A stretch of DNA of 64,000 nucleotides from Gammaproteobacteria bacterium (GTDB lineage: Bacteria > Pseudomonadota > Gammaproteobacteria > Pseudomonadales > JADFDG01). The stretch spans positions 93,523 to 157,522 of the forward strand of contig JADFDG010000002.1 in the NCBI GenBank assembly GCA_018262975.1, in the 5' to 3' direction. The translations under genes and the position numbers were made by a program. A model generated the notes under the pieces. The model was not told the origin of the DNA. It saw only the letters and a program-made list of their open reading frames with translations, and ran no database searches. Below are positions 6,443 through 26,456 of the stretch, in pieces (the first letter of the stretch is position 1; the number at the start of each line of letters is the position of its first letter).

Positions 6443-7137
6443 TCCGCGTGGCTGGCGCCACCGCTACCGGGCCGTACCACGTGCGCGCGCGGCAGCCCAA
6501 CCAGGACGCCGTACTCGCCCATGGGTGGCGCGGCGGCTGCTTGCTGGCCGTCAGCGACGGCCTCGGCTCGCGGCCACGCAGCCAGATCGGTTCGCGTGCT
6601 GCCGTCCGCGCGGCACGGGCGGTGGTTCGCAACAGTCCGGAGCCGGACCTGGTCACGCTCGCGGAGCGAATCCGGCAGGCGTGGGAAGCCGGTATCGCAC
6701 CGTACGCGCCAGCAGAAGTGGCCTGCACGCTGCTGGTCGCGGCCGTCGATGCGCAAGGCAACGGATTCGCGGCCCAACTCGGCGACGGGCTTGCCCTTTG
6801 GCATGACGGCGAGCACCTGCACGTCATCAGCCAGCCAAAGCCGGACTTCTCCAACGAAACCAGCGGGCTCGGAATTTCGCGGAGCACGTCGGACTGGACG
6901 TTCGCAGCCATTTCGCTGGCGAAGCCCGACAGCGGCATCGTGCTCATGTCGGACGGCGTAGCAGACGACCTGCAGCCCGACAGTCTCGCCAACACGATCG
7001 CGCTGCTCCGACAACGGCTCGCACAACGCAGTCGCCGCGCCCAGCAGCGATGGCTCCTGCGCCAATTCGCCGGCTGGCCGGCTCACGCCGGTGATGACGA
7101 CAAATCGATGGCCATGGCTTTCAGGTGCTCTGCATGA
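6439..7137 (+). CDS. PP2C-family Ser/Thr phosphatase
   Basis: NQDA, LLAVSDGLGS, LGDG and VLMSDGVADDL motifs. The GTG start overlaps the vWA stop (GTGA). Confidence 0.8.
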   Translation: MIRVAGATATGPYHVRARQPNQDAVLAHGWRGGCLLAVSDGLGSRPRSQIGSRAAVRAARAVVRNSPEPDLVTLAERIRQAWEAGIAPYAPAEVACTLLVAAVDAQGNGFAAQLGDGLALWHDGEHLHVISQPKPDFSNETSGLGISRSTSDWTFAAISLAKPDSGIVLMSDGVADDLQPDSLANTIALLRQRLAQRSRRAQQRWLLRQFAGWPAHAGDDDKSMAMAFRCSA

Positions 7138-8549: not shown

Positions 8550-8552
8550 CGC

Positions 8553-11500
8553 ATGAAACTCTGTGAATTCGCCCTGACAGACCCGACGCTCTTCCGGTTC
8601 CGCGAGGACACGATTCAGCCGACGACCGGCTGGGTCGCCGACGAAGAACTCGAGCTGCTGAAGACCACCGACGGGCTGTATCTCGCGAAGCAGGGCGATG
8701 CGCTCACGACGCTCGTGCCCGTGGATCGGCGCGGCGAAGTCGACCTGCTGCTGACGCAGCGAACGGTGTTCTGGATCTTGCGCAACGATCCGTCGGGCGG
8801 GAAGGGTGCGTTCGAATTGCAGCTCGTGAGGCCTCTCGAATCCCGGGAGGTGGACGAACTGGAAATCTGCATCGACGACAAGGTGGCGGAATTTCTGGCT
8901 CGCCGCAATGAGATACCCAACGCGGATGCGGGCCAGGCCGTGGACTGGTGCCGCGACGAGTTCCTGTCGGATTCCGGTGGCATCCCCCGCCTGTTCGTAG
9001 CACGGCATGGCAATGACGCCACAGGGACCTACCAGCTCATCGGCCGCCGCTATCGCGCGGACACCGCCATCGACGCCGCCGGCAAGTTGCTGGTCAGGCG
9101 CCTGGCACCAGTTCCCTCCCCGGCACCGGATTTCGTAGTGCTGACCGGCTCCATCGCCTTCGTCGATTACTCGGTTGCCATACGCCTGCTGGGCGCTGCC
9201 CAACAGGCTGCCCTCGAACAGGCGACCGCTTCCAACCGTGGCTACCTAGACCTGTGGCGCCGCTATGCCGAGAAGGAGTGGGAAGTCTGCGTGAACGACG
9301 CGGCCAAGATCGGCAGCATCCGTTTTCACGGAACCCGCGAACGCGATGACGGCCCGGGCTATGTCTTCAAGACGGACCCGGCGCAATTGCAGGAATTCCG
9401 CCAACGCTGGAACGGCGTTGCCACGAGCGACGACACGCAACTTGCCGTGGACGACGAGGCACCGACCTGGGACCCCGCGGATCCAAACTCGTACGCGTCG
9501 ATCGGCTATCGAGGCGGCGGCTTTGCCGGCAGTGTTGTCCGCTTCCTGGACGACGGCATCGAGATCAAGTCGAACTACGACACCGCCCCACCTGAACGCG
9601 GGTACCTGTTCGTTTCGCTGTCCGGCGAGCGGAAGATGCAGAAGCGCCGTGAGGAGGCTTACCTCGGGATCGAGAGCCGGGCGCGGCTGCCGCAGTTGCG
9701 CTGGCTGCTCGAGGAGCTGCCGGTCGACGTGGCATCCCACCAGCGATTTACGCCGGTAATTACCCCGGCGGTGCGCCGCATCTTCCGCGAGGAACCGACC
9801 CAGCGCCAGCGGGACGCGATCGACGTAGCGCTGCACACCCCGGACATCGCCCTGATCATCGGCCCGCCCGGTACGGGTAAGACGCAGGTCATCGCGGCCA
9901 TCGAGCGGCGCCTGGCCGAGGACAGCAGTGCCACGCGGGATCACCGGGTACTTATCTGCAGCATCCAGCATGATGCGGTGGACAATGCCCTTGAACGTAC
10001 CCAGGCGTTCGGGCTGCCGCCGTTGCGCGTCGGCGGCAAGGAAAACGCCCGCAATGAAGGGGGGGACGCGGTAATCCAGTGGTGCGATCACAAGCAGAAG
10101 GTCGTCTCGCAGCACATCGAGGAGCGTGAAAAGAGCGAGCCTGATGCGCCGCTGCTGCGCCAGGTGACGGAGGCCATTGCCCAACTGCGGTTTGGCCATC
10201 TCACCGCAGCAAGCCGGCTGCAGATGTTCGAGGAACTGGAGACCAACCTGCAGGCCCTCGCCGACCGTGGCGTCCGGCTGCCCACCCCGGTGGTCGTGGA
10301 GCTCGAGACCTACCTCGCGTATGCGCGCACCCGGACGGCGGCCGCCCGCCCGGAGCACCGCAGTCATTTGCAGCCCCTGATCCGTGCGCTGCGAACGACA
10401 ACCGAGGGCTTCCTGGACGACGGCCCCGCGCGCGCCCGGCGGCTGACCGATGCCCTGGCCGGTGATGTGTCGGCAGCCCGCTATCACCCGCGGCTGGCCG
10501 AATTCACTGACTGGGACGGCGTCTCGCCTGCAACGGATTTCCTGGAGCGCGCTGCGCGACTGCGCGCCGAACTGCTGGAGTGGTCACTGCCCGACTACCG
10601 TCCCCCCGCCGTCCGCACCCGACTGGACGACGAGGGTGACCGTGTGCTCGCCGAAATCGAGGCCGCCCTGTCGAGCCACCTGGCACGCAGCCGCCGCGGG
10701 ATCACGGGCGTGCTGACCAACTTCCGCGATGCCCTGTTGCACTCGCCGAGGCGGGCACACGATTCGGCTGCCGCCTATGCCCACGTCGTGGGCGCCACCT
10801 GCCAGCAGGCACTGCACCGCGACATGGCCACCGTGCAGGACGTTTCGCGCGCCGACGTAGCGTCGATCAGCTTCGACACGGTGATCATCGACGAGGCAGC
10901 GCGCGCCAACCCGCTGGACCTGTTCGTGCCGATGTCACTGGCGACGCGCAGGATCGTACTGGTCGGCGACCATCGCCAGCTGCCGCACCTGCTGCAGGCG
11001 GACATCGAGGAAGAGGTATCCGAAGACCTCAACCTCGAGGAGGCCCAGCGGCGAGCCTACAAGGAGAGCCTATTCGAGCGCCTGTGGCGCCAGCTGAGCC
11101 AGCGCCAGCTCGAGGGTGATGCACGCCGCGTCGTCATGCTCGACACACAGTTCCGCATGCACCCCGTGCTGGGCGACTTCGTCAGCCGCCAGTTCTATGA
11201 GCGACACGGCCTGGACCGCATCGAGTCCGGGCGCAAGCCGGAGTCCTTTGCCTCGGACATTCCCGGTTACGAGAACAAGGTCTGTGCGTGGATCAATGTG
11301 CCCGGCCATGACGACTCCCGCCGCGAACGCCGCAACAAGGTGCGCAGCCTGTACCGCGACACCGAGGCGAAGGTCGTGGCCGAGGAGGCCGCGCGCCTGC
11401 TGCATCAATGCGACCGCGCACTGAGCCTCGGCATCATCTCCTTCTACCGTGCGCAGGTAGACGCCATCTACCGCGAACTGGCGAAACGCGACATCGCCGA

Positions 11501-11873
11501 GCCGGACGGCAAAGGCGGCTATCGCCTGCTGTCCGAATACCGGCACACGCCGGACGGTGGCGAACGCCTGCGCATCGGCACCGTCGACGCATTCCAGGGC
11601 AAGGAATTCGACATCGTCATCCTGTCGGCGGTCAGGTCGAACAATCAGCCCCGGCCACGCACCGGCGCCGCCGATGCGGAGCGCGCGGCCAACACCTGTT
11701 ATGGCCACCTCCGGCTCTCCAATCGCCTCAATGTGGCGATGAGCCGCCAACGCAGCCTGCTGATCACGGTCGGCGACCTCGACTTCATGTGCGAGCCGTC
11801 GGCACGCGAATATCTCCCGGAGATCCAGGCGTTCATTGAACTCTGCAGGAGCGAACATGGCAGCGTTCGCTGA
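8553..11873 (+). CDS. Upf1/DNA2-like superfamily-1 helicase (AAA_11/AAA_12) with ~400-aa unassigned N-terminal region (CnuH-like)
   Basis: Walker [12 protein letters not shown], Walker B VIIDEAARA, LVGDHRQLP, LDTQFRMHP, GIISFYRAQV, TVDAFQGKEFDIVILS, RLNVAMSRQR. Confidence 0.85.
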   Translation: MKLCEFALTDPTLFRFREDTIQPTTGWVADEELELLKTTDGLYLAKQGDALTTLVPVDRRGEVDLLLTQRTVFWILRNDPSGGKGAFELQLVRPLESREVDELEICIDDKVAEFLARRNEIPNADAGQAVDWCRDEFLSDSGGIPRLFVARHGNDATGTYQLIGRRYRADTAIDAAGKLLVRRLAPVPSPAPDFVVLTGSIAFVDYSVAIRLLGAAQQAALEQATASNRGYLDLWRRYAEKEWEVCVNDAAKIGSIRFHGTRERDDGPGYVFKTDPAQLQEFRQRWNGVATSDDTQLAVDDEAPTWDPADPNSYASIGYRGGGFAGSVVRFLDDGIEIKSNYDTAPPERGYLFVSLSGERKMQKRREEAYLGIESRARLPQLRWLLEELPVDVASHQRFTPVITPAVRRIFREEPTQRQRDAIDVALHTPDIALIIGPPGTGKTQVIAAIERRLAEDSSATRDHRVLICSIQHDAVDNALERTQAFGLPPLRVGGKENARNEGGDAVIQWCDHKQKVVSQHIEEREKSEPDAPLLRQVTEAIAQLRFGHLTAASRLQMFEELETNLQALADRGVRLPTPVVVELETYLAYARTRTAAARPEHRSHLQPLIRALRTTTEGFLDDGPARARRLTDALAGDVSAARYHPRLAEFTDWDGVSPATDFLERAARLRAELLEWSLPDYRPPAVRTRLDDEGDRVLAEIEAALSSHLARSRRGITGVLTNFRDALLHSPRRAHDSAAAYAHVVGATCQQALHRDMATVQDVSRADVASISFDTVIIDEAARANPLDLFVPMSLATRRIVLVGDHRQLPHLLQADIEEEVSEDLNLEEAQRRAYKESLFERLWRQLSQRQLEGDARRVVMLDTQFRMHPVLGDFVSRQFYERHGLDRIESGRKPESFASDIPGYENKVCAWINVPGHDDSRRERRNKVRSLYRDTEAKVVAEEAARLLHQCDRALSLGIISFYRAQVDAIYRELAKRDIAEPDGKGGYRLLSEYRHTPDGGERLRIGTVDAFQGKEFDIVILSAVRSNNQPRPRTGAADAERAANTCYGHLRLSNRLNVAMSRQRSLLITVGDLDFMCEPSAREYLPEIQAFIELCRSEHGSVR

Positions 11874-13350
11874 CCGCTATCTCCGCTACGAGCGCGGGCC
11901 CAAAGGCAGCAAGACCGTGCTTTGGCCGGTCTATGCCTGGCCCGTGTACTTCCCGACACCGCGGCGCAATCAACTGGACCTCTTCCAGGAAGCCATTCTC
12001 GGGCTGATGCGTGCCGGCGTACGCCAGGCGCGTGATATCGGCGACTTGCTCGCCCTCGACGCCGAACTCGTGGCCTTCATCATTTCCGCCACCCTGATCC
12101 CCGAAGGCTGGACCGACCGGAACGGCCGCCTGACCGAAAAGGGAGAACGCGTGCTCGAGACCGGCAACACCCGCGCCGACGACATGACCCGCGGCGTCGT
12201 GTTCCAGGACGCCGTCACGTTGCGACTGTGGCCCCGGTTTTCCCGCATGCCTCTTGAGGAGATTGAAGCCCTGGAGCAGGGCGATTCACACCGCCCACGA
12301 TTCATGCTGAACAGGACGAGTGGCTTCTCCGTGAAACCCTTCCTGGTGGAAGGTGCGCGTCCCTGGCGATCCACGCCGACGGCATCCGATATCTTCGAGG
12401 CCTTTCGCGAGTTCCTCGGCGACGCGAACCGGCGGCGAGGCGACGGTGGCGACGAACTGGCGCAGCGCGTCCGCTCAGGCGATATCCGCCTTGCCTCACA
12501 AAATCCGGAGCCGTACTACCTCTGGGTCGATGCCTATCGAAACCCTGAGAGCAGTTACCCGTGGCTGATCGCCGATCCTTTCGGTTACATCGACGCGGCG
12601 CCCTGGCTTCGCCACAACGTGGCACGCAAGCTCGATGGGTCTGCCGACGGCAGGCCTGACGCGCCGCTCGCGGGATACCTGAAGACGCTGTACGACAAGT
12701 CCGAGACCGCGAACGACTCTTTCGACGCCTATTTCAGGGAGATCGACGAGAGGGTAAACCTCGAACTGATGGCGAAGTATCCCGGGGTAACCAAGGACAA
12801 GCGAATCGCGGAGCAGTTCGCCACAGTGCTGCGCGTATCGGAGCACCTTCGGTCGCTTGGCAGGCACGTCAAATCCGACGCCATCGATTCCCTGATGAGC
12901 GAGAACCAGAAGCTTGGCGAAGTCGTCCTCAAGCAGGTCTATCGGCAGTTCACGATCCCGGGCGACAAGGTGCCGGTCGCGTGGAAGTACAAACAATTGC
13001 GCCAGGCCTACGCCGCCATGAACCTGGCCTTTCTCGATCAGGACGCCCTCGATGCGCTGCCGAAGGTGCCGGCCGATTCCGTCAACTCCGCAATTGACAG
13101 GAACGGTGACGTCTCGCTGAAGGCCTGCGTCGCGCTCAATGTGTTTTCCGCCTGGAAGCATTCCGGCCACCCGTTCAACAGCATGACAGCGGCAGACACA
13201 GGTATCGGCCGGCTGATAGCCCTTGCCAATGACCGCAACCTGTCAAGCCACGCCTCAGACCCCGGCCGCGGAAAGAACACGGCCGACAAAGCACTTGCTC
13301 ACGCCGATTTCATCACCGCGTGGGCCGCCCAATTCACCAACTGGTACTGA
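11857..13350 (+). CDS. hypothetical protein with C-terminal HEPN-like RNxxxH motif
   Basis: ATG 11857 is preceded by GGAG and overlaps the helicase end by 17 nt. Near the C-terminus, LANDRNLSSHAS fits the HEPN R-x4-H (RNxxxH) motif. The N-terminal region (LFQEAILGLMRAG...) may be wHTH. Weak by-eye call. Confidence 0.5.
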   Translation: MAAFADRYLRYERGPKGSKTVLWPVYAWPVYFPTPRRNQLDLFQEAILGLMRAGVRQARDIGDLLALDAELVAFIISATLIPEGWTDRNGRLTEKGERVLETGNTRADDMTRGVVFQDAVTLRLWPRFSRMPLEEIEALEQGDSHRPRFMLNRTSGFSVKPFLVEGARPWRSTPTASDIFEAFREFLGDANRRRGDGGDELAQRVRSGDIRLASQNPEPYYLWVDAYRNPESSYPWLIADPFGYIDAAPWLRHNVARKLDGSADGRPDAPLAGYLKTLYDKSETANDSFDAYFREIDERVNLELMAKYPGVTKDKRIAEQFATVLRVSEHLRSLGRHVKSDAIDSLMSENQKLGEVVLKQVYRQFTIPGDKVPVAWKYKQLRQAYAAMNLAFLDQDALDALPKVPADSVNSAIDRNGDVSLKACVALNVFSAWKHSGHPFNSMTAADTGIGRLIALANDRNLSSHASDPGRGKNTADKALAHADFITAWAAQFTNWY

Positions 13351-13353
13351 ACC

Positions 13354-15723
13354 ATGGGAAAAAAGGACAAGAACAAGTACAACAGCAGCATCCCGCAGCA
13401 GACCGCCCGCCAGGCACCCGCTCCGGCCAAGGTGGACACCCACAAAGTCGTTGCTGCGGCAGCGAACATTGCTTCGCTGACCGGCGGGCACGCACCAGCC
13501 TGGGACGAGAAGCAACTCACGTCGCTGGTTGACGTGCTGGATGGCGATTCACGCCAGCGGTTTGCCTCGATTGCGGAAGAGCTCGCCTCGCTGGGCCGCG
13601 CCGCACGCGAACTCGTCGAAACGCGGGACGCCATTCAGGCGGAGCTTGATCGCCGGCATGCCGAACTGAAGGACCGTGAACGGATGCTTTCCGAGGCGCA
13701 GGCGGAGGCCGAGCGCCTGCGCGCGGAGGCGAGCAAGACTGCCGACCAGGCGAACGCACGACGGCTCGAACTGATTGAGATCGAGCAGCGGGTTGCGCGG
13801 GAGGAAGCCAAGGTCAGGAACGGCTGTATTGACGAGCGCGAGGCCGCCCTGCGCGAACTTCGCGTGGAGATCGACACACTGCTCGACCGCAAGAAGGACC
13901 TGCTGCTCGAGAATGAGCGAGCGCGGCAGTCCATCTCTGCGGAGAGGGCCGCCCTGCAGGAACAGGCACTGGCTCTACTTGAGGTTGAGCGCAAGGCGCT
14001 GGACGCTCGACAGGCCGATCTCCAGCGCGAGGCGACGAGGGTGAAGCATCTTGCGATGGACGTCGAGGCGAAGCGCTCTGCCGACATGGCCCTTCTTGAT
14101 CAGGAGAAGGAGCACCTCCGCTCACAGTTCTTGCAGAATGAGGAACACCTAAAGATCAAGCTGGCCATTGCCGAAAGCCGGGCCAAGAGGATCGCCGAGG
14201 GAGAGGCTCGCCTACAGCAGGAGCTCCAGCAGTACGAGGAACTGCGCGACGTGCTGGCCGGTCGGCCGCCCGCCTCGCTGGTGGACGAGCTGGACGAGCT
14301 GCGTCGCGAGCGCAACGCCCTTGCCTCCAGGGTCGCAGAACTGAGCTCGCTCAGCAGCACACGCGACTACGAGCGGGTCGCACACGAGCGTGAGGACCTC
14401 TCCGCGCGCCTGGCGGAAGCCGAATCCCGTCTCGCGGCAGCCAACGCAACCCTGGGAGCGCACCGGACCTTGGCATACGAGCGCGCCTCGCTCGAGAAGG
14501 AAAACGCCCTGATGAAGGGAAAGACCACGCTCCTCGACGGCATGATCAAGGAACTCCAGGCACAGATCGACACGCTGACCAACCAGCAGCAACAGAAGGT
14601 CCCGTTCCCGGAGTGCTCCAGGATGGACGCGCCCGAGTTCCAACGCCCCGTTGCCGTAGAACCCGTTCCGGAACTGCAGCAGTTCGCGGAGGAGTTGCGG
14701 CACCGTATTGCGCAATCCGAGCCTGGCAACCCGCTGTACTACGATGCGTCCACGCTGCGCCTGTTCATTGGCGGCCTGGCAATGAGCCGCCTGCACGTAC
14801 TGCAGGGCATCAGCGGCACCGGCAAGACCAGTCTCGCCCAGGCCTTCACCAAGGCCGTTGGCGGTCATTGCGAGGTGATCCCGGTACAGGCCGGCTGGCG
14901 TGACAAATACGACTTGCTCGGACACTACAATGCGTTCGAAAAGCGCTATTACGAGAAGGACTGCCTGCAGACCCTCTACCGCGCCCAGACCGAGGCTCAC
15001 CGGGACCAGCTTCACGTCGTCCTGCTTGACGAGATGAACCTGTCGCGTCCCGAGCAGTATTTCGCGGAGTTCCTGTCGGCCCTCGAGCAGAAGGAGAGCT
15101 CCCGGATCATCACGCTGATGGAATCGGCACCGGCGAACGCCCCGAGCCTGCTCATCGATGGCCGCCGCATCCGGGTGCCCAACAACGTCTGGTTCATTGG
15201 TACCGCCAACCATGACGAAACGACGCACGAGTTTGCGGACAAGACCTACGATCGCTCGCACGTGATGGATCTGCCGCGCCATGTCGGCACCTTCGATATT
15301 CACAAGTTCGAGCCAACGCGCTATTCGTATTCGTCGCTTGAGGAGGCATTCCGGAAGGCCTGGAGCAAACACGAGAAGGCGTGCGCGAGCTTCCTGCGCT
15401 TTGTCTCGCACAGCGAGTTCACCCAGGTGCTCGAAAATACCTATGGCCTGGGTTGGGGCAACCGCTTCGAGCGCCAGGCGCACCACTTCCTGCCGGTGGT
15501 GAAGGAGTGCGGCGGCACCTTCGAGGAAGGTCTCGACCACCTGCTGGCCACCCGCATGTTCCGCGCCGGCAAGATCGCTGCGCGCTACGACCGCACAGCG
15601 GAAGACCTCAAGAAGATCGAGGATGCACTGCTCAAGACCTGGAAGCAGAACAAGCTGGCCGGCGAGCCCGAGCGATGCATGGACCGGATCCGCAAGGACC
15701 GCCTGCGCTACGGGGCGGAGTGA
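13354..15723 (+). CDS. McrB-like AAA+ GTPase with ~350-aa N-terminal coiled coil (CnuB-like)
   Basis: Residues ~60-420 are charged, Ala/Leu/Glu/Arg-rich and heptad-like (ELKDRERMLSEAQAEAERLRAEA...). The C-terminal AAA_5/McrB core has GISGTGKTSLAQ (Walker A), VVLLDEMNLSRPEQYFAEFLS (Walker B region) and WFIGTANHDET (compare the McrB NTAD motif). Confidence 0.8.
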   Translation: MGKKDKNKYNSSIPQQTARQAPAPAKVDTHKVVAAAANIASLTGGHAPAWDEKQLTSLVDVLDGDSRQRFASIAEELASLGRAARELVETRDAIQAELDRRHAELKDRERMLSEAQAEAERLRAEASKTADQANARRLELIEIEQRVAREEAKVRNGCIDEREAALRELRVEIDTLLDRKKDLLLENERARQSISAERAALQEQALALLEVERKALDARQADLQREATRVKHLAMDVEAKRSADMALLDQEKEHLRSQFLQNEEHLKIKLAIAESRAKRIAEGEARLQQELQQYEELRDVLAGRPPASLVDELDELRRERNALASRVAELSSLSSTRDYERVAHEREDLSARLAEAESRLAAANATLGAHRTLAYERASLEKENALMKGKTTLLDGMIKELQAQIDTLTNQQQQKVPFPECSRMDAPEFQRPVAVEPVPELQQFAEELRHRIAQSEPGNPLYYDASTLRLFIGGLAMSRLHVLQGISGTGKTSLAQAFTKAVGGHCEVIPVQAGWRDKYDLLGHYNAFEKRYYEKDCLQTLYRAQTEAHRDQLHVVLLDEMNLSRPEQYFAEFLSALEQKESSRIITLMESAPANAPSLLIDGRRIRVPNNVWFIGTANHDETTHEFADKTYDRSHVMDLPRHVGTFDIHKFEPTRYSYSSLEEAFRKAWSKHEKACASFLRFVSHSEFTQVLENTYGLGWGNRFERQAHHFLPVVKECGGTFEEGLDHLLATRMFRAGKIAARYDRTAEDLKKIEDALLKTWKQNKLAGEPERCMDRIRKDRLRYGAE

Positions 15724-15726
15724 CGC

Positions 15727-17559
15727 GTGAAGGTAATCGATCGACTGACCGGCGAAACCCTTGAATTGCCCTCACCGGTGACGCCGGGCCGTTATGCCGT
15801 CAGGCAGGCCTGCCGCTTCAATGGTCACTCGGACCTCGAGCCGCACGCGGTGCTGGTTGGCGATGGTTCGTCCCGCTGCGTGCTGGACGACAAGCCCGCG
15901 GGGCACTTCCCCGACACGGCGCAACCACGCGAACGGCGTGCGAAAGTTGAACTGCTGCGGGAGGCCATCCACGCCATCCACCATCAGCGGCAGGACAGCG
16001 CCGACGCGCTCCCCTCGCCGCTGATGCCGCTCACGCTGGCGAGGGTTCTTGATCTCGGTCCGCTCGAGGAAGAACTGGCGGCGGTGATGCAGGCCGGGCA
16101 CCTGGACGAGATCGCACGTCGGCCCCGCATGTCGCTGAACTACGAAACGGAACTCACTGTGCTCTCGCGTGCCCGTCGGCTGGCGCCGGATGCGCATCGC
16201 CGACTGGCCTCGAACTCCGGCGACTGGCAATACCGGACGTTCAGCGGCATCGTGCCCCGGCGCGTGCTGGCCCTGCACAGCGAGGACGACCTCGGCCTTT
16301 ACGAAAACAAGGTGTTCGCGCGACTTGTCGATCGCCTGGTCGAGCACCTGCTGGCCCGCATCGCCAAAATCAACCACCTGCACCGCAATCTCGAGGATGC
16401 CATGCGCCTGCAGGACGCGGAGCACCTCTTCCGTCCCCTCCGCGAGGAACTCTGCTCCCTGTGGGGAGAGGCCTTCCTCGCAGCAGACAGCAACACGGCG
16501 CACGAACTCGAACGCAGCCTCGACGCCCGCGAACGCCTGACCCGCCTGCTGCGCAAGCTGCTGGCCTTCAAGCATGGCGACCTCTACGCCGCCATTCCGC
16601 AGAGCGCGCAGGTACCCGAAAAGCTGCGTGACACCAACATCCTCATCCACGACCCGCATTACCGGCACCTGCGGGACCTCTGGAACCGGGCGGCCGGCGA
16701 GAGGGCGAGCGCACGCCTGACGCCCCGCGAACAGATGCTGGTCGAGCAGCGATGTCTGGCCAACTACTCGTCCTACGTCGGCTTGGTCGTGGCGCGCGCC
16801 TTGCGGTCATTCGGGCACGACTTCGCATCAGGCGCCGACGGCGGCAGCGAGGCTGTGCTGGGCCATACACGCATCCGCGTGACACGGCAGGGCCTCGACT
16901 GGCACCTGAACGATGGCCGGTCGGAGATCGTGCTTGTCCCGTTCGAGTTCGCCTTTTCCGGGGCTGAGCAACCGGCCGTGGCCGGCGCGACGCAGCGCTA
17001 CGCGGTCTGCTGCTTTCCGCAGGGGACCGATCCGCGGGACGATACTGCGCACGGCGGGCTGTCCGTTCATCCGGCCGACTTCTACGTCGAGGAGAAGATC
17101 CGCGCCATGCTGACCGACTGGCAGCTCCGTCCGATGTTCGCGCGCTATGGCACGCCACTGAAAAACGTGCCGAATGCCATTGTCGACTTCCTGCGTGACC
17201 ACGACTTGGGCCGTGGCGACGCCAGCCAATTATTCATCGTGAAACCGCCCGCCAACGGGCAGCGCGCAGCCCTCGATGCCGTGGCGGCGCGGCACGCCAA
17301 CCCGCAAACACGAGCGGACGTGCTGCAGCGCCTCGACGACCTCCGGGTCTTGTCCACCTGTCGGAACGACTGGTGCGGCGCCGCCATGGCGTTCGAGCCG
17401 TCAGACGGCGGGTGCTTTCACGCCTACTGCCACCGCTGCGGCGCCCGCACCGGCATCCGGCTCGATCATCACCGGCGCCATGCCTTCTTGTGGCCGGATG
17501 GCGCAGCACAGCCGGGTGACACCGACTACGGCGCGCGGCGGCTGGAGTTTGACCTATGA
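15727..17559 (+). CDS. McrC/DUF2357-like partner protein with C-terminal Cys/His zinc-ribbon-like cluster (CnuC-like)
   Basis: Starts 3 nt after the McrB-like gene. DLGLYENKVFARLVDRLV resembles the DUF2357/McrC 'ENr' helix. The C-terminus is CRNDWCG...CFHAYCHRCG. I could not find a canonical PD-(D/E)xK motif by eye. Confidence 0.55.
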   Translation: MKVIDRLTGETLELPSPVTPGRYAVRQACRFNGHSDLEPHAVLVGDGSSRCVLDDKPAGHFPDTAQPRERRAKVELLREAIHAIHHQRQDSADALPSPLMPLTLARVLDLGPLEEELAAVMQAGHLDEIARRPRMSLNYETELTVLSRARRLAPDAHRRLASNSGDWQYRTFSGIVPRRVLALHSEDDLGLYENKVFARLVDRLVEHLLARIAKINHLHRNLEDAMRLQDAEHLFRPLREELCSLWGEAFLAADSNTAHELERSLDARERLTRLLRKLLAFKHGDLYAAIPQSAQVPEKLRDTNILIHDPHYRHLRDLWNRAAGERASARLTPREQMLVEQRCLANYSSYVGLVVARALRSFGHDFASGADGGSEAVLGHTRIRVTRQGLDWHLNDGRSEIVLVPFEFAFSGAEQPAVAGATQRYAVCCFPQGTDPRDDTAHGGLSVHPADFYVEEKIRAMLTDWQLRPMFARYGTPLKNVPNAIVDFLRDHDLGRGDASQLFIVKPPANGQRAALDAVAARHANPQTRADVLQRLDDLRVLSTCRNDWCGAAMAFEPSDGGCFHAYCHRCGARTGIRLDHHRRHAFLWPDGAAQPGDTDYGARRLEFDL

Positions 17560-17724
17560 GTTGCGCTTGTTGATGGCGGCCAAAAGCCGGAGCGAACCCC
17601 TGTACGAGTTGCGCGGGACCCATAAAACATTAAGGCTTGGATAGTCCAAAATCTCTCATGAAATGTTTGTAATTCTTTACAACAAAGACATATGCGTTGG
17701 CGCAAGGTTTGATTGAGGCTATAT

Positions 17725-18753
17725 ATGCATCTTCAGGGGCACCTCCTATATATCGACATTACACAAATATGCGGCATCGGCTGTGCCTTCTGTATGTACG
17801 CCGACAAGCACAAAATAGGGACTAGCATGGAGCTATCAACGTTGGCGCGGGAAAACCTCACCAGGTTGATCAATTCCCCGGACGTCAAGCGGATCTCCAT
17901 CAGTGGTGAGGGCGAGCCACTAAACAACGCCAAAGTGTTCCACGAGATACTCGGATTGTCCAAAGGTGGCAAGTGCTTCGAATTCATCACTAGTGGGTTC
18001 TATCCACATGACAAGATGGCGGATTTCTACGATGCGACGAGCCGCATTGTTTCGGTCAGTGGCGACACCTGCAACATCCGCCTAAGCGCCGACAGCCACC
18101 ATATTGAGAAGGTTAAATGGCGGGCTCATGGTTTTAGTCTGGACTACCTGCGGCGCCGGCGACCGCCAGGGCTCAGTTTCTCGTTCCGCTCGATCGACAC
18201 CGATCGCGATTTCACTCGCGCGTACCTGAAGTCTGAACTGGTCCACTGGGGCGTTGAAGCAACCATTGAGTCACGCAGTGTGCTTGAAGATGTACTGGTC
18301 GCGGGCGGCGAGTGGTTCAGCATCGACTACAAGAACCTCGTTCACCCTGCTCCAGAAACCGCCCCCGGCTATCTAGATATGCGGGGCTACATCGAGGCGA
18401 TCGAGTCAAAGGTCAACAAGCCCTTTACCTTCGGCAGCCTGAATAAACCGCCACAGGCCAACGGTTTGGATGTCACGGTAAAGCCTAGCGGCGACATATA
18501 CCTGTATGGCATCGAGAATCAGCGCCTGGGCAACATTCACTTTGACCGGGTCGACTGGCAACGGCTGGTCGACCACGTGCGGGAAACACCGTTAACCCGA
18601 GCACTTTATACGCAACCCTTTACCGAGTTGCTGGGGCGCCTTGATAACACCGATCTGCTTCGTTCGATCATCGCCAAGGCGAACAATCCCTACTGGCTGG
18701 TGAAGGAGCTGGCAGGTCATGCTGGATTGCTTGAACAGTGGGGCGCTGCATGA
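17725..18753 (+). CDS. radical SAM enzyme (unassigned subfamily)
   Basis: CxxxCxxC cluster CGIGCAFC at residues ~16-23 and SAM-binding ISGEGEPL. GAGG lies 6 nt upstream of ATG 17725 (track start TTG 17713). Lower-GC codon usage than its neighbours. Confidence 0.85.
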   Translation: MHLQGHLLYIDITQICGIGCAFCMYADKHKIGTSMELSTLARENLTRLINSPDVKRISISGEGEPLNNAKVFHEILGLSKGGKCFEFITSGFYPHDKMADFYDATSRIVSVSGDTCNIRLSADSHHIEKVKWRAHGFSLDYLRRRRPPGLSFSFRSIDTDRDFTRAYLKSELVHWGVEATIESRSVLEDVLVAGGEWFSIDYKNLVHPAPETAPGYLDMRGYIEAIESKVNKPFTFGSLNKPPQANGLDVTVKPSGDIYLYGIENQRLGNIHFDRVDWQRLVDHVRETPLTRALYTQPFTELLGRLDNTDLLRSIIAKANNPYWLVKELAGHAGLLEQWGAA

Positions 18754-19616
18754 TCGACTCACATAGCCACAGCTATTATTCGAAGCATGCGATCGGAACT
18801 GTCGACGAGTTAGTTCGCGCCTCGGTCGCCGCAGGCGTAACCGTCCTAACCATCACTGACCACGCGCCGTTCCCTGTGGATATGGACAACCGTCTGCTCG
18901 CGTCAGAACTTGATCGCTATTTCGCTGACATCAAGCGGGCGCGGGAGATTTATCAGGGGCAGATCACTATCCTGAGTGGCCTGGAACTCGACTACATGCC
19001 AGGTACCGACGCCTTCAATCGCGAGCTGCTTGCTCGTTACCCGATGGACTTTGTAATAGGCTCGATTCATTACGTAGAAGTTCCGGATGAAGCGATGGTG
19101 AAGGTCTGGGAGCTGCCACGCCTTGCCGGGCAGGCGTTTCTAGATCGCTACTTCGCCAATCTCGAAGGTCTGCTAGATAGTGGATTGTTCGATGCTGTAG
19201 GGCACGCTGACACCTTGCTGCGTGGCGTGCCGGAAGACATCTTCCTGCGCCGTTTTGAACCTTTGTTGGCACCGCTCGCCAGAAGCGGTATCGCATTCGA
19301 GCTCAATGCGTCAGGTCTTCGAAAGTCGAGCCTGGACCCTACAACGGGCAGGGAGGTCCAGGGCTTTTGGTCTTATCCGTCTCGGGCGTTGGTGGCACAG
19401 CTTATCGCACACGGGGTGCCTTTCACGGTTGGGTCTGATACCCATGACCCGAGCGACGCTGGCGCGGGCATTGCTGAACTGCTTGAGACACTGAGGCCTT
19501 TGGGGCTGAAGAGCATTAGTTACTACGAGCGGCGCCGACGAATCGATGTCGACCTCGACAGCCTGACGTTACCGGGCACACCAACAACTTTGACAGCAGG
19601 ACTTGAACGGCCTTGA
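18750..19616 (+). CDS. PHP-family phosphoesterase (HisJ histidinol-phosphatase-like)
   Basis: IDSHSHS, ITDHAP, GLELDY, GSIHY, VGHAD and GSDTHDP metal-ligand motifs in PHP order. ATG 18750 overlaps the radical SAM stop (ATGA). Confidence 0.85.
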   Translation: MIDSHSHSYYSKHAIGTVDELVRASVAAGVTVLTITDHAPFPVDMDNRLLASELDRYFADIKRAREIYQGQITILSGLELDYMPGTDAFNRELLARYPMDFVIGSIHYVEVPDEAMVKVWELPRLAGQAFLDRYFANLEGLLDSGLFDAVGHADTLLRGVPEDIFLRRFEPLLAPLARSGIAFELNASGLRKSSLDPTTGREVQGFWSYPSRALVAQLIAHGVPFTVGSDTHDPSDAGAGIAELLETLRPLGLKSISYYERRRRIDVDLDSLTLPGTPTTLTAGLERP

Positions 19617-20743
19617 ACATGGTTTGCCCTGAAAGATCTCCGCTATGGTTCGAGCTACTTAAGAGCCCGGTTGATGTCCAGTTGGCGATGTTTCGTCAGG
19701 CTTCCGCTCAGCCCCGTGCGAATGATGTGAAAGCTGGATTCCGCGCGTTCGCTGCCGAGCTGTTTGCACGTGGCCAGATCAGCATGACCGAGTATGTTTC
19801 GATTTTTGGCGGTACTGCCCTGCACTGCATTACATCTGCCGAGTCGGGATTGTTCCGCGACATGACCACGGGCAGCGATGCCACAGCACTGGCTGGGATC
19901 TACAGCCGTGCAAAATACGGCGGTGTGCATGACATCCGGTATCTCGCAAGACAACTGATCGACTACCTCTGTGGCGAGCTGGATAGGTCAGACTCGCAAT
20001 GGTCATACCTGTTCCAAAACGCCAAGGCCTGTGGGGACAACGTGGTGATGATGACCACTGGGTGGCGCAACGTGCCATCCACGGCGAACGTGCTCTATGA
20101 GTTCGTGGTCGAGGAGGTCAACGTCAAACTGGCGCATATGGCGTTGCCGACCATCATCAACGTCAAGCTACCCAGGATTGCGCCGCCGTGCGAGAGCTAC
20201 GCCAGCCTCAGCACAGAAGAGCGTGAGCATGTCAATCTGGTCCAAGATCATGTCATTCCGGCTGAGAATTTCTACCGATGGGGCGGTGTGCATGTGATTT
20301 TCGGCGACGATGTGCTGGTCACCGGATCTACCGCCGACAAAGTGCTTTATGAATCCATGCGTAGCGGTGCCAAGTCGTTCCACGCGATTTATCCGGTGGC
20401 GATTGATCCCCGTGTAGCGCTCGGCGATGCCTCAGTCGAGGACCGACTGAATAGCGTGGCGGTCGAACCGCGGCTGGATGATACCGTTGCGGAGCTGTTG
20501 TCTGCGCGGGACTACCAACCAATCCTGCGCACCCTGCGCCTGTTATTCGGGGAGGGAAGCCGAGAGTCGTTCGCCGCATTCCTGCCGAAGGTGCCTGCGC
20601 CGACCTGGCTGCGTCTGTACAAGTCTGCCTTGGGTAACGAGTTTCTAAGTCAGACACAATGTGCTCCTTCCTTGGTGTTGCTGAGGGAGTACCTGACAAA
20701 TGCCGGGTTGTTAAGTGCCAATGGAAGTCCGATTCACCCGTGA
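19613..20743 (+). CDS. phosphoribosyltransferase-family protein (ComF-like type I PRTase) with long N-terminal region
   Basis: PRPP-binding loop VHVIFGDDVLVTGSTADK and an upstream SRAKYGG motif as in ComF-type PRTases. TTG 19613 overlaps the PHP stop (TTGA); the alternative start is ATG 19619. Confidence 0.7.
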   Translation: MNMVCPERSPLWFELLKSPVDVQLAMFRQASAQPRANDVKAGFRAFAAELFARGQISMTEYVSIFGGTALHCITSAESGLFRDMTTGSDATALAGIYSRAKYGGVHDIRYLARQLIDYLCGELDRSDSQWSYLFQNAKACGDNVVMMTTGWRNVPSTANVLYEFVVEEVNVKLAHMALPTIINVKLPRIAPPCESYASLSTEEREHVNLVQDHVIPAENFYRWGGVHVIFGDDVLVTGSTADKVLYESMRSGAKSFHAIYPVAIDPRVALGDASVEDRLNSVAVEPRLDDTVAELLSARDYQPILRTLRLLFGEGSRESFAAFLPKVPAPTWLRLYKSALGNEFLSQTQCAPSLVLLREYLTNAGLLSANGSPIHP

Positions 20744-20768
20744 GCAGCTGCCTTGAGGCTTGTTGATC

Positions 20769-20923
20769 GCATCCTTTCGTACGAACCGATGGACCTCTCC
20801 CTCGCTTCGCCTGAGGGTGTCTGGGTCGAATGTGGGGCCCCCAAGGCCTTGGGATGGCCGCGAGGCCCGTGGATTACGCCAATCTGCGCTGTTCAAAGGG
20901 ACGACGTTCGTAGGAAAGGATGC
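20769..20923. repeat. MITE-like unit A: 155 bp bounded by 18-bp terminal inverted repeats
   Basis: The left end GCATCCTTTCGTACGAAC pairs with the right end GTTCGTAGGAAAGGATGC (1 mismatch). Confidence 0.55.
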
Positions 20924-20959
20924 CGCTCCGCTTGGTCTGGCGGCGGAGTGCCCGACCGC

Positions 20960-21113
20960 GCATCCTTTCGTACGAGCTGAAGTGATGGTTTGGCCTTTTA
21001 AGGCAAGGTTTGCGGCTCCCAGGGAACTCAGCTTGAGGGCTCGGCGGTGCCAAAGGGCTGGAAATCGCGCGCCCCCTGCCCACTCGGGCAGGGGGCTTCG
21101 TACGAAAGGATGC
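20960..21113. repeat. MITE-like unit B: 154 bp bounded by the same 16-bp terminal inverted repeats
   Basis: GCATCCTTTCGTACGA ... TCGTACGAAAGGATGC (perfect). The interior differs from unit A and contains the hairpin CCCCCTGCCC-ACTC-GGGCAGGGGG (about 21072-21095). Confidence 0.55.
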
Positions 21114-21138
21114 AGAGGCTAGGGCCGGCCCAAGCAGG

Positions 21139-21624
21139 TCAGAAATCAACCAGGCCTTTCTGGAAGTCGGCGATCGTCCACGTGTCGTTGGCCAATTTGA
21201 AGATCACAACGCCGGTTTCCGAACCGACCTCCGTGCCCGGCGGAAGGTCGATAGCCTCAAAAAGCGTCCTCTCGATGGAGGGTCTGCGGCTGGTCGCAGA
21301 CATCATGGCCTTTAGAAAGATCCACTCCCGGTCTTGCTGATCCTGAAGAGCCTCCGGGAGCACCTCGGTGCGCGACGTGGTGATCGTCATCTCGCATCCG
21401 TACCGGTCCTCGGCCATAAATTTGCACTTATTCACGGTCATCTCGTTCCTGAAGAGAATGCCGAAGAAGCGGTGCATCCCCTGGAATTCGAGCGCAGGCC
21501 TGAACTTGTCCTGCAGATCCAGATGGACCTTTTCGTCAGACGGCGGCTTCGGCCCGCAGCCGGCGAGAGTGGAAAGCAGGCTCAACACGAGCAGTGCTTT
21601 GCCGAGTCGCGAGGTATTGTTCAT
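21139..21624 (-). CDS. lipoprotein, hypothetical
   Basis: MNNTSRLGKALLVLSLLSTLAGC carries a lipobox (LAGC). AAGGAG lies 7 nt upstream of ATG 21624; the track ORF extends to 21783. Lower-GC composition. Confidence 0.7.
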   Translation of the reverse strand: MNNTSRLGKALLVLSLLSTLAGCGPKPPSDEKVHLDLQDKFRPALEFQGMHRFFGILFRNEMTVNKCKFMAEDRYGCEMTITTSRTEVLPEALQDQQDREWIFLKAMMSATSRRPSIERTLFEAIDLPPGTEVGSETGVVIFKLANDTWTIADFQKGLVDF

Positions 21625-22148
21625 GGGGATCTCCTTGGTGGTTATTGGGAATTCCTGATCGGGGATGCCCGCGATACCGGGGCGTGATACGCCCAGGATC
21701 CGCCCTGTCCCAATGTCTGTGCGCGCGTCGTCGCCGTAGCCTCTGTAGGCCGAACCCAGGGGGATCGTGGTGCTCGCCTGCATGGTTTCAGGCGGAAAGG
21801 GGTGTGCGCCCTGACGGTTCTGCCTGGCAAAAGGCCCGGTCGGACAGATGCGTCTCCACTATTTCCAGGCCGATGTCCGCTGGAAACGTTGGCGACGAGG
21901 GGGTGAGAGTTGCACCGAAAGCCGACGCGAGCTGGCCGAATGACGTCGCCAAACCAGCGGCGCATTCCGCAGGCTAGTACTCGTCTTTTGAGAGAAAACC
22001 GAAGGCCGCGGAGTCCGGCTTTGTGCCCACGAAAAGGCACCTTGCGTGCGCTTAAGTGATGTCGCGAGGGCTGTCCGGTGCGCCGTAACTTGCTGACGTA
22101 AAAGCGATTTACGTCACCTGAGGGCAGGTAACGTTCCGTACCGGGTTT

Positions 22149-22189
22149 GGCTTCGGAGGCGGTACTCTATCCAGCTGAGCTACGAGCGC
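22149..22189 (-). pseudogene. truncated tRNA-Arg(CCG): 5' fragment only (acceptor 5' arm, D-arm, anticodon loop)
   Basis: The minus strand reads GCGCTCG-TA-GCTC-AGCTGGATA-GAGT..ACCGC-CTCCGAA-GC, close to the E. coli tRNA-Arg(CCG) 5' half. Similarity stops two nt into the 3' side of the anticodon stem. No T-arm (GGTTCGAATCC) follows. Confidence 0.6.
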
Positions 22190-22334
22190 ATGCGCGGTGC
22201 GGGCGGCGATATTACACGATATTCGCCGGGCACCGGCAGGCGGGATTTGCGCTTCCGCGGCGGCGCCACCGATACAATCCCCGCCCCTCCCCGCCAGCAG
22301 GCGGGCCCCCGTTGCCGATGGCGGACCCCTACCT

Positions 22335-25512: not shown

Positions 25513-26115
25513 ATGACGGAAAGACTCGACGCCCTGCTCGCCCGCATCCACGAGCTGCAGGAACAGGTGGAGGATACCTACCGCGAGGCGCGCGACGAGT
25601 GGGAACGCGAGAAGCAACGACTGGCCGGCGAGTTCGTGCGCCGGCAGCGGCGCGCGCGCATCGGCCTGCTGCGCTTCCTGCGCACCTCGCGGCCACTGGT
25701 GGTGCTCACCGCGCCGGTGATCTACTCGGGCTGGATCGTTTTCCTGCTGCTGGACCTGTTCGTCAGCCTCTACCAGTGGATCTGTTTCCCGGTGTACGGA
25801 ATCCCGCGCGTGCGGCGCGGCGATTACCTGGTGCTGGATCGCGGCGACCTGCCGTACCTGAACGCCATCGAGAAGTTCAACTGTTTCTACTGCTCCTATG
25901 GCAACGGCACCATCGCCTATGCGCGCGAGATCGCTTCGCGTACGGAGCAGTACTGGTGCCCGATCAAGCACTCCCGCCGCGTGCGTGACGCGCACGACCG
26001 TTACCCGCTGTTCTTCGAACACGGCGATGGCGACGCCTACCGCCAGGGCCTGGCGCGCCTGCGCCGGCAATACGGCATCCCTGAAGACCACCGCGACACG
26101 GACCACCATCCATGA
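25513..26115 (+). CDS. conserved hypothetical membrane protein
   Basis: N-terminal coiled segment, a TM stretch (LVVLTAPVIYSGWIVFLLLDLFV) and a Cys-containing C-terminal region (CFYCSYGNG...YWCPIKH). No family recognised. Confidence 0.55.
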   Translation: MTERLDALLARIHELQEQVEDTYREARDEWEREKQRLAGEFVRRQRRARIGLLRFLRTSRPLVVLTAPVIYSGWIVFLLLDLFVSLYQWICFPVYGIPRVRRGDYLVLDRGDLPYLNAIEKFNCFYCSYGNGTIAYAREIASRTEQYWCPIKHSRRVRDAHDRYPLFFEHGDGDAYRQGLARLRRQYGIPEDHRDTDHHP

Positions 26116-26456
26116 GCAACGACGGCCTCGCCCGCTATCGCCAGCGCGAACAGGGCTACCGCGAACGCGCGCTGAAGATGTATCCGTGGATCTGCGCCCG
26201 CTGCGGCCGCGAGTTCTCCGGCAAGCGCGTGGCGGAACTCACCGTGCACCACAAGGACCACAACCACGACAACAACCCGCCGGACGGCTCCAACTGGGAA
26301 CTGCTGTGCATCTATTGCCACGACCAGGAGCACAGCAAGTTCATCCACCAGATCCGCTACGGCAGCGACGCACCGGCCACCGGCGACACCCGCGAGCCGC
26401 CGAAGCACAAGGCGCTGTCGGGACTGGCGTCCCTGCTGAAGAAGGACGGCGACTGA
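26112..26456 (+). CDS. yajD: YajD-family HNH nuclease
   Basis: CARCGREF...LTVHHKDHNHDNNPPDGSNWELLCIYCHDQEH, the typical YajD HNH pattern. 114 aa. Confidence 0.8.
   Translation: MSNDGLARYRQREQGYRERALKMYPWICARCGREFSGKRVAELTVHHKDHNHDNNPPDGSNWELLCIYCHDQEHSKFIHQIRYGSDAPATGDTREPPKHKALSGLASLLKKDGD

Follow-up and report, generated by a model that had tools for sequence, protein, structure and literature searches.

A probable copy of the anti-jumbo-phage system Ophion behind a CoCoNuT-like operon in a gammaproteobacterial genome

What do three tightly packed genes for a radical S-adenosylmethionine (SAM) enzyme, a PHP phosphoesterase and a phosphoribosyltransferase (PRTase) do when they sit between a CoCoNuT-like system and a broken tRNA gene? 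The genes lie in a stretch of 64,000 nucleotides from a Gammaproteobacteria bacterium (GenBank assembly GCA_018262975.1, contig JADFDG010000002.1, positions 93,523 to 157,522). We call this whole stretch the window, and coordinates given without the name of another locus are positions in it. A preliminary description, made from the letters of the sequence, had proposed that the triad is an undescribed nucleotide-modifying system with an antiviral or signalling function.

There is very little doubt that the triad is an orthologue of Ophion, a named and experimentally supported system. The antiviral role that had been proposed agrees with the finding that orthologues 88-91% identical to the window proteins block phiKZ-like jumbo phages; the word "undescribed" has to be given up, as the triad was named Ophion in September 2025. 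A Nature Communications review and a further preprint, both from 2026, already count Ophion among the anti-jumbo-phage systems, and neither adds a mechanism. The triad is therefore already known, named and tested in 2025, and is not a new system; since Ophion was named and validated then, we present the locus not as a discovery but as a real defence system that a blind reading recognised correctly. We read the interval 17671-20765 as an intact, horizontally acquired copy of Ophion (opnA, opnB, opnC) and put the probability of this reading at roughly 80%. The chemistry of the three enzymes is weighed separately below.

Identity of the triad

A full-text literature search on the three domains together led to a preprint of 30 September 2025 (bioRxiv 10.1101/2025.09.30.679545; the Ophion preprint in what follows), which describes Ophion as consisting of OpnA (radical SAM), OpnB (PHP) and OpnC (PRTase), labelled OphA, OphB and OphC in its tables. 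Aligned without gaps to the sequences in Table S1 of the Ophion preprint, OpnA from the window is 90.6% identical to the published OphA over 342 of 342 amino acids, OpnB is 90.6% identical to OphB over 288 of 288, and OpnC is 88.2% identical to OphC over 374 of 374. The residues that were mutated in the Ophion preprint are all present and invariant in the family: E64 of OpnA, E79 of OpnB and the lysine of the YSRAKYG motif in OpnC. The last is called K98 there (mutant K98A); the mutagenic primer sequences place it at residue 99 of the 374 aa. On hidden Markov models (HMMs) that we built from 37-39 other loci, the window proteins score 660.6 (OpnA), 524.7 (OpnB) and 677.8 bits (OpnC); the authors of the Ophion preprint apply thresholds of 500, 350 and 450 bits, respectively, to HMMs of their own, which differ from ours. 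The window OpnA also shares a 90% cluster with PA14_03340, whose gene adjoins jukB (PA14_03350) and jukA (PA14_03360), and this fits the co-localisation of Ophion and Juk reported for 98% of the Pseudomonas aeruginosa cases (bioRxiv 10.1101/2025.09.30.679545). The identity of about 90% over the full length, the mutated residues, the HMM scores and the cluster shared with PA14_03340 are the grounds on which we call the triad an Ophion orthologue. The database record of PA14_03340 begins at Met35 and hence lacks the CxxxCxxC motif, and the 2023 version of PADLOC does not include an Ophion model.

The triad is conserved as a unit and is under purifying selection. In alignments of the 37-39 loci from other species, 113 residues of OpnA, 74 of OpnB and 91 of OpnC are invariant, and these include all catalytic motifs. 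The pairwise ratio of nonsynonymous to synonymous divergence (dN/dS) against four other loci is 0.08-0.24; against its closest relative opnC reaches 0.40, at a dS of only 0.09. The preliminary description had suggested checking whether the three genes co-occur elsewhere, and they do: the radical SAM and PHP genes are retained upstream of the PRTase gene in 36 of the 37 informative species loci.

The layout of the locus is that of a compact operon. GC content drops from 0.65-0.72 at 16.5-17.5 kb to 0.47-0.60 across 17.55-20.85 kb, in a window whose background lies at 0.63-0.72 (about 0.66), and the low-GC block begins directly past the stop codon of the McrC-like gene at 17559, as had been described from inspection. 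Windowed GC is 0.47 in 17550-17849 and 0.50-0.60 from there through 20.85 kb, rises to 0.57-0.63 until about 22.2 kb and then returns to 0.63-0.67. Three open reading frames on the + strand, each with two candidate starts (17713/17725-18753, 18738/18750-19616 and 19613/19619-20743), fill 17.7-20.7 kb. The genes that correspond to the published proteins are opnA (17725-18753, 342 aa), a radical SAM enzyme with a CxxxCxxC cluster at C16/C20/C23 and an SGEGEPL motif, preceded by GAGG 6 nt ahead of its ATG; opnB (18750-19616, 288 aa), a HisJ-family PHP phosphomonoesterase; and opnC (19619-20743, 374 aa), a divergent PRTase_3 or type I phosphoribosyltransferase. Overlapping stop and start codons had been proposed at both junctions. 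The ATGA at 18750-18753 is indeed a 4-nt overlap of opnA and opnB. At the second junction a TTGA is present at 19613-19616; however, the start that is homologous to that of the published protein is the ATG at 19619, 2 nt after the opnB stop, and opnC is therefore closely spaced with opnB rather than overlapping it. The motifs CGIGCAFC, ISGEGEPL and VHVIFGDDVLVTGSTADK are present, with most of their residues invariant across 38-40 homologous loci. The order radical SAM, PHP, PRTase and the co-oriented, tight packing are the Ophion arrangement. The window thus carries three conserved enzymes, predicted to be co-transcribed, whose active-site motifs are intact.

The experimental support for Ophion comes from the Ophion preprint (bioRxiv 10.1101/2025.09.30.679545). 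With the P. aeruginosa genes cloned in strain PAO1, plating of phages phiPa36 and phiKZ was down at least 10^6-fold, and the three genes alone, in a construct of 3,020 bp (Table S2), protect against phiKZ-like jumbo phages. In Ophion-expressing cells there is no burst, abortive infection is absent and the host is not killed; the block falls between the appearance of the early-infection vesicle and the stage of the phage nucleus, which does not form. Point mutations in the radical SAM enzyme and in the PRTase abolish protection, and mutation of the PHP enzyme leads to a partial loss only. A frameshift breaks opnA in two in some assemblies of P. aeruginosa (L003 8110-9134; L004 6021-7045), and therefore Ophion appears to be decaying in part of that species.

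The three enzymes and their possible product

Pfam, NCBIfam, hhalign and Foldseek agree with the domain calls of the preliminary description (radical SAM, HisJ-type PHP, PRTase). For OpnA they lead away from the comparison with viperin and QueE that accompanied those calls. OpnA matches Pfam Radical_SAM with 31.4 bits against a cut-off of 29.5, and its AlphaFold model is of good quality (mean predicted local distance difference score, pLDDT, 85.7; predicted template-modelling score 0.88). The solved structure that matches this model best in Foldseek is the peptide epimerase EpeE of Bacillus subtilis, of the YydG family (template-modelling score 0.62-0.65, E 4.6e-9, over the full length), followed by CteB, anSME, DesII and SpeY; viperin, QueE and MoaA structures are absent from the 50 best matches. 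A profile search of OpnA against the sequences in the PDB gave no match. A profile search of 1.84 billion representative proteins found 188 OpnA relatives at E<=1e-3, of which 59 reached E<=1e-30. When 10 of the more distant full-length relatives were compared with NCBIfam, 9 gave hits at E<=1e-5; the best hit of 7 of these 9 was the YydG model TIGR04078, always far under its cut-off. The family has only four invariant cysteines (C16, C20, C23 and C116), three of them in the SAM cluster, and OpnA therefore has no ligands for an auxiliary cluster of the EpeE type. OpnA is thus a small, isolated family whose nearest relatives are radical SAM enzymes of the epimerase/dehydrogenase type, not viperin, and we reject its assignment to viperin, QueE or MoaA on the HMM scores and the 50 best Foldseek matches. 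Nor do the data bear out membership in the YydG/EpeE epimerases: the fold alone is similar, the HMM score stays under the cut-off, the auxiliary cysteines are missing and the list of open reading frames contains no small precursor-peptide frame in the Ophion cassette. The fold and the nearest relatives of OpnA also argue against the viperin analogy used in the Ophion preprint.

OpnB matches Pfam PHP with an E-value of 5e-22, scores 119 bits on NCBIfam hisJ_fam (TIGR01856; cut-off 90.2) and aligns over its whole length with the histidinol phosphatase 2yxo of Thermus thermophilus (E 6.5e-32). The full set of metal ligands that had been noted by eye is there and is invariant in the family (H5/H7, E79, H107, H152 and D230/H232, that is, HxH, E, H, H, DxH). 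Judged by these matches, OpnB is predicted to be a true HisJ-type phosphomonoesterase in a context that is not histidine biosynthesis. The Ophion preprint instead likens it to the proofreading-exonuclease PHP domain of family X DNA polymerases (bioRxiv 10.1101/2025.09.30.679545). With an OpnA that is not viperin-like and an OpnB that is HisJ-type and not a PolX-type exonuclease, the search shifts toward riboside or sugar chemistry.

Public records label OpnB a histidinol-phosphatase, and this annotation, together with a score that passes the HisJ family cut-off, could be taken to mean that the triad is ordinary housekeeping for histidine synthesis or purine salvage, or else a sink for PRPP (phosphoribosyl pyrophosphate) or a nucleobase that starves the phage; for the latter there is a parallel in ShosT, whose PRTase disturbs purine metabolism according to the Ophion preprint (bioRxiv 10.1101/2025.09.30.679545). 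We consider both versions very improbable. A radical SAM residue is essential for protection, and neither host toxicity nor abortive infection is seen. The genes form a low-GC mobile cassette in the defence islands of many genera, his or pur genes are absent nearby, and the rarity of OpnA (the 188 relatives counted above) does not fit a housekeeping enzyme. On this context and this rarity the housekeeping role in histidine metabolism is rejected.

In hhalign, OpnC aligns with XaC1_251, a bona fide member of PF15610 (184.7 bits), at a probability of 93.9% (E 1.6e-7, 220 columns), and the alignment takes in the PRPP loop and the C-terminal helices. The structural model (pLDDT 84.3) has a core that Foldseek matches to HGPRT and UPRT with probabilities of 0.99-1.0 and to ComF with 0.84; the E-values, at about 5e-3, are weak. 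Invariant across the family are the PRPP loop IFGDDVLVTG.TADK and the lysine of YS.AK.G; a profile search against the sequences in the PDB gave no match. We conclude that OpnC is a divergent PRTase_3 protein with a type I PRTase core. XaC1_251 belongs to the Xanthomonas phage XaC1 (OR258281.1, locus L044), a jumbo phage of 349 kb, where its gene directly follows one for a HAD-type hydrolase. This pair lies at L044 4264-5747, near genes for an RNA ligase and a tRNA nucleotidyltransferase. OpnC also matches phrog_13415, a family of unknown function.

From these assignments we propose a chain of reactions, to which we give somewhat less than even odds. OpnC would join a nucleobase-like acceptor to PRPP and so form a riboside 5'-phosphate; OpnA would abstract a hydrogen atom and tailor the sugar or the base; OpnB would remove a phosphate monoester; and the nucleoside-like small molecule that results would poison early gene expression of the jumbo phage. 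The first and third steps are in keeping with the invariant PRPP loop and type I PRTase core of OpnC and with the match of OpnB to a solved histidinol phosphatase. A two-step route to a riboside is further supported by the pairing of a PRTase_3 protein with an unrelated HAD phosphatase in phage XaC1, and by the Ter-linked modules of PRTase and HAD proteins, which have been interpreted as synthesising nucleoside derivatives (PMC7824862, Iyer 2021). For OpnA, the YydG/EpeE-like architecture favours epimerisation, dehydrogenation or dehydration over viperin chemistry. That OpnB is needed only in part agrees with a step in which host phosphatases could to some extent stand in for it.

Several observations weigh against our reading, in its chemistry as well as in the part that rests on orthology. 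OpnC scores 18.7 bits on Pfam PRTase_3 (PF15610, "PRTase ComF-like"; E 1.2e-3), under the cut-off of 28.7, and matches none of the defence PRTase models of PADLOC. If the active species were a nucleotide for incorporation by a polymerase, a phosphatase would make a strange partner; EpeE, the solved structure nearest to OpnA, modifies peptides and not nucleotides; and the two extra glycosyltransferase genes found in most natural loci are unexplained by a small-molecule model. The evidence for protection is that of a preprint and concerns the P. aeruginosa orthologue expressed in PAO1 only. In strain PA14, single deletions of jukA or jukB sensitised the cells to phiKZ despite the adjoining Ophion genes, which suggests that Ophion in its native setting is perhaps not always expressed or does not always suffice.

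Cassette borders and neighbouring genes

Comparison at the DNA level delimits the element. The conserved mobile Ophion cassette spans 17671-20765 (+) and consists of a 54-nt leader, the three genes and a 22-nt trailer. Matches to P. aeruginosa, P. ceruminis and S. stutzeri span 17725-20754 only, and those to metagenome-assembled genomes (MAGs) of Oryzomicrobium, Pseudomonadales and Propionivibrio reach at most 17671-20765. The Oryzomicrobium MAG (L005) and locus L034 each give a single ungapped blastn match of 90-93% identity, 92.7% for Oryzomicrobium. The surrounding DNA is otherwise unmatched, apart from the tRNA fragment to which we return below and a short piece of CnuB, far upstream, that is matched by two loci. 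Since DNA homology is confined to 17671-20765, the triad appears to travel as a cassette of 3.1 kb whose GC is below that of the host. The cassette is also found in Oryzomicrobium, Propionivibrio, Comamonas, Variovorax, Paraburkholderia and Ideonella, which we take to be Betaproteobacteria.

The left edge at 17671 cuts through the palindrome TTGTAA-ttct-TTACAA at 17667-17682, 42 nt ahead of the opnA ATG, whose left arm thus lies outside the cassette. The palindrome that had been pointed out upstream of the first gene is real, but it is not conserved, being absent in all 38 other loci examined, and we reject it as an operator. A GC-rich hairpin of 7-9 bp occurs in the opnA leader, at -35 to -15 from the ATG, in the Pseudomonas loci L001, L007, L008, L022-L032 and L040. 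Its arm sequences vary between lineages, which suggests compensatory change, and it lacks a T-run and so is not a terminator. The counterpart in the window (17697-17712) has 4 bp only; with this short version and individual z-scores that are weak, we reject a conserved leader hairpin. Scans for promoters and terminators gave nothing above shuffled sequences, and Rfam found no match in 17.4-22.4 kb at the gathering threshold or at E<=1.

At the right edge, the trailer (20744-20765, +), aligned with L001, L005, L006, L008 and L034, corresponds to the first codons of the fourth gene of other loci, which lies behind opnC and encodes a DXD glycosyltransferase. The window keeps about 11-22 nt of this start, and because of this homology the trailer is a probable deletion scar. 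In the place that the glycosyltransferase genes occupy in other genomes, the 17-nt motif GCATCCTTTCGTACGAA occurs four times in the window, its orientation alternating, and these copies bound two units of about 155 nt (20769-21113). The motif contains the 10-bp palindrome TTCGTACGAA; it has 5 matches against 0.09 expected and occurs nowhere else in the 64-kb window. The two units share their termini only and have unrelated interiors, with z = -4.5 as single-stranded DNA. They may be elements resembling miniature inverted-repeat transposable elements or repetitive extragenic palindromes, or a set of protein-binding sites. Next to them, on the - strand, a gene at 21139-21624 encodes a predicted lipoprotein of 161 aa with an LAGC lipobox, preceded by AGGAGA 5 nt ahead of its ATG. 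It has no match in Pfam, NCBIfam, PADLOC or PHROG and no homologue in the other Ophion loci; it is island cargo and not an Ophion component.

The broken tRNA is a truncated tRNA-Arg(CCG) at 22153-22190 (-), of which the 5' 38 nt are left (the 5' strand of the acceptor stem, the D arm, and the anticodon stem and loop), with a 1-nt deletion in the region of the anticodon stem. Its 3' half and any integrase are gone, and ARAGORN reports no tRNA in the 64-kb window. Intact tRNA-Arg(CCG) genes flank the Ophion islands of P. aeruginosa, P. ceruminis and S. stutzeri (L001, L007 and L008), and the truncated copy marks the island border. To its right, among housekeeping genes, lies a small HNH endonuclease gene (26112-26456, +); at the left end of the island are two adjacent GTPase genes of the MMR_HSR1 or dynamin-like type (984-2914, -).

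Upstream of the cassette, and not part of Ophion, is a Type II-like CoCoNuT (5771-17559, +), recognised with Pfam and PADLOC and read against the architecture in PMC11090510. It begins with a TerY-P triad (vWA 5771-6442, PP2C 6439-7137, STK 7125-8549), followed by the helicase CnuH (8553-11873), CnuE with a winged helix-turn-helix (11836-13350), the coiled-coil McrB-like CnuB (13354-15723) and the McrC-like zinc-ribbon protein CnuC (15727-17559). The description of the triad as defence-island cargo between a CoCoNuT-like system and a broken tRNA is therefore accurate. A CARF gene lies ahead of the CoCoNuT at 3903-5162 (-), and CARF genes are a known CoCoNuT accessory (PMC11090510). The arrangement CnuH-CnuE-CnuB-CnuC directly upstream of opnA recurs in 6 of 35 species loci besides the window (L007, L008, L013, L017, L021 and L026). 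The window CnuC is 32-34% identical to the CnuC proteins of these six loci and its OpnC is 65-89% identical to theirs; with CnuC so much more diverged than OpnC, this looks more like exchange of cassettes at a shared hot spot than like co-evolution, and a functional link between Ophion and CoCoNuT is possible. We reject the triad as a CoCoNuT component, given that the linkage is limited to the 6 of 35 loci and the window and that DNA homology ends at the edges of the triad. PRTase, radical SAM and PHP proteins are unmentioned in the CoCoNuT paper, and literature searches on CoCoNuT with PRTase and on the PA14 locus tags returned nothing. The exact edges of the cassette and its recurrence behind CoCoNuT at the tRNA-Arg(CCG) hot spot point to a self-contained mobile module that is also found outside the Gammaproteobacteria.

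Other neighbours vary. In L001 two genes of 256 and 317 aa that precede opnA are inferred to be those of JukA and JukB; used as tblastn queries against the 64-kb window they gave no match, and JukA-JukB proper are present in only 2 of 35 species loci. Outside P. aeruginosa the commonest upstream neighbour, in 14 of 35 loci, is an Xre-type helix-turn-helix gene with a JukA paralogue that carries a C-terminal zinc ribbon and is 35% identical to the presumed JukA (L001 4346-5823).

Such company could mean that the triad makes a nucleoside-like second messenger and that a nearby effector, be it JukA-like with Xre, CoCoNuT or the CARF protein, senses it and stops the phage. Ter-linked modules of PRTase and phosphoesterase have been read as signal synthesis (PMC7824862), and Ophion is nearly always beside defence genes: JukA-like in the 14 of 35 loci, CoCoNuT in 6 of 35 and the window, and JukAB in P. 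aeruginosa; CoCoNuT systems, in turn, are accompanied by CARF genes (PMC11090510). We nevertheless regard this as distinctly improbable, because Ophion acts alone in PAO1, which had to be given Juk, because the neighbour differs between loci, and because no homologue of the window CARF lies within 10 kb of the triad in 42 other loci. This last result, and the role of CARF genes as an accessory of CoCoNuT itself, leave the suggestion that the triad supplies a ligand for the nearby CARF sensor unsupported. The contrast between the divergence of CnuC and that of OpnC likewise favours shuffling at a hot spot over co-evolution.

In 31 of the 37 informative species loci the gene after opnC, at a distance of -21 to +12 nt, encodes a DXD-motif glycosyltransferase of about 266 aa with weak matches to Caps_synth and Gly_transf_sug, and a convergent 509-aa GT9 gene comes next in 26 of 33; both counts take in three loci in which the start of the DXD gene overlaps the opnC stop. 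In P. aeruginosa the 266-aa gene begins at a GTGA that overlaps the opnC stop. The glycosyltransferase genes lie at 11122-13406 in L001 and at 12027-14087 in L005, where the two are fused into one protein of 686 aa; the same fusion is probable in L034, on the strength of a weaker same-strand tblastn match only. The window (20744-21138) and four other loci are without both. We found no mention of these genes in the main text of the Ophion preprint or in those of its supplements that were available as text. Ophion as published may thus be under-delineated and be, in most loci, a four-gene operon (opnABC and the DXD glycosyltransferase) with a convergent GT9 gene, and these nearly universal partners could guide work on the mechanism.

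An alternative explanation, which we think unlikely, starts from these partners. PRPP-dependent ribofuranosylation followed by dephosphorylation occurs in polysaccharide synthesis, and OpnC and OpnB may together transfer ribofuranosyl groups from PRPP in two steps, in which an acceptor first receives a phosphoribosyl group and its 5'-phosphate is then taken off. As target one would expect a protein, glycan or nucleic acid of the phage or associated with the vesicle; OpnA would modify the same target, and the linked glycosyltransferases would extend the modification. The DXD gene after opnC, the convergent GT9 gene and their fusion in the Oryzomicrobium locus would then have a place, and a peptide epimerase as the best fold match of OpnA, with nearest sequence neighbours that match YydG best, would suit a macromolecular substrate. 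However, the three genes protect fully in the absence of glycosyltransferases, five loci including that of the window have neither of them, OpnA lacks the cysteines of the EpeE auxiliary cluster, the cassette has no precursor-peptide frame, and the structure predictions in the Ophion preprint show no interaction among OpnA, OpnB and OpnC (bioRxiv 10.1101/2025.09.30.679545).

The small-molecule route can also be extended to take the glycosyltransferases in. Ophion would then make an epimerised or otherwise sugar-tailored riboside that is optionally glycosylated, and such compounds would be antiviral natural products of a new class, with specificity for the early transcription of jumbo phages. 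The bare three-gene cassette of the window would be a mobile minimal form that repeatedly docks behind CoCoNuT for a functional reason. We consider this reading unlikely.

Comparison with known systems

Radical SAM enzymes with a phosphohydrolase or a PRTase are combined in known nucleoside pathways, as in oxetanocin synthesis by OxsB and OxsA and in toyocamycin synthesis with ToyC, ToyH and ToyI. Like Ophion, these pathways join a radical SAM step to phosphoribosyl transfer, dephosphorylation or both, and they yield a bioactive nucleoside. We detect no relation in sequence or fold, and enzymes of the QueE type and B12-dependent enzymes are absent from the matches of Ophion.

Anantharaman, Iyer and Aravind reportedly described, in 2012, a Ter-associated module of a PRTase and a HAD phosphoesterase for a "nucleoside-like metabolite". 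Ophion resembles the Ter-associated PRTase_3 module in that a PRTase is paired with a phosphomonoesterase; it differs in having a PHP/HisJ phosphatase instead of the HAD protein and an extra radical SAM enzyme, and in having no TerB, TerC or TerD genes. OpnC itself departs from canonical PRTase_3 proteins in its extra N-terminal region of about 90 aa and in falling under the Pfam cut-off.

With YydG/EpeE and the SPASM/twitch enzymes OpnA shares the fold over its full length, and its nearest sequence relatives outside the family match TIGR04078 best. However, it is only 15% identical to YydG/EpeE, scores 17.7 bits on TIGR04078 against a cut-off of 300, and lacks the conserved C-terminal cysteines of the auxiliary [4Fe-4S] cluster. 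The prokaryotic viperins (pVips), which make ddh-nucleotide chain terminators, are likewise radical SAM enzymes in antiviral defence, and OpnA has a weak match to PADLOC pVip in the N-terminal cluster-binding part (23.9 bits, E 6e-6, 105 of 257 profile positions). On the viperin model NF038283 of NCBIfam it scores 19.9 bits against a cut-off of 180, and its C-terminal two thirds are unrelated; moreover, Ophion needs a PRTase and a phosphatase, whereas pVips do not.

The closest comparison remains that with Ophion of P. aeruginosa. The window differs from it in lacking a Juk system within 64 kb, and from most Ophion loci in lacking the downstream glycosyltransferase genes; its host has a higher GC content than its Ophion cassette. 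The closest relatives of the cassette are those in the Oryzomicrobium and Propionivibrio MAGs, whereas the Ophion preprint speaks of Gammaproteobacteria. What the window and P. aeruginosa share are the same three genes in the same order and of the same lengths (342, 288 and 374 aa), identities of 88-91% in protein and 87-93% in DNA, and a position in a defence island beside a tRNA-Arg(CCG) site.

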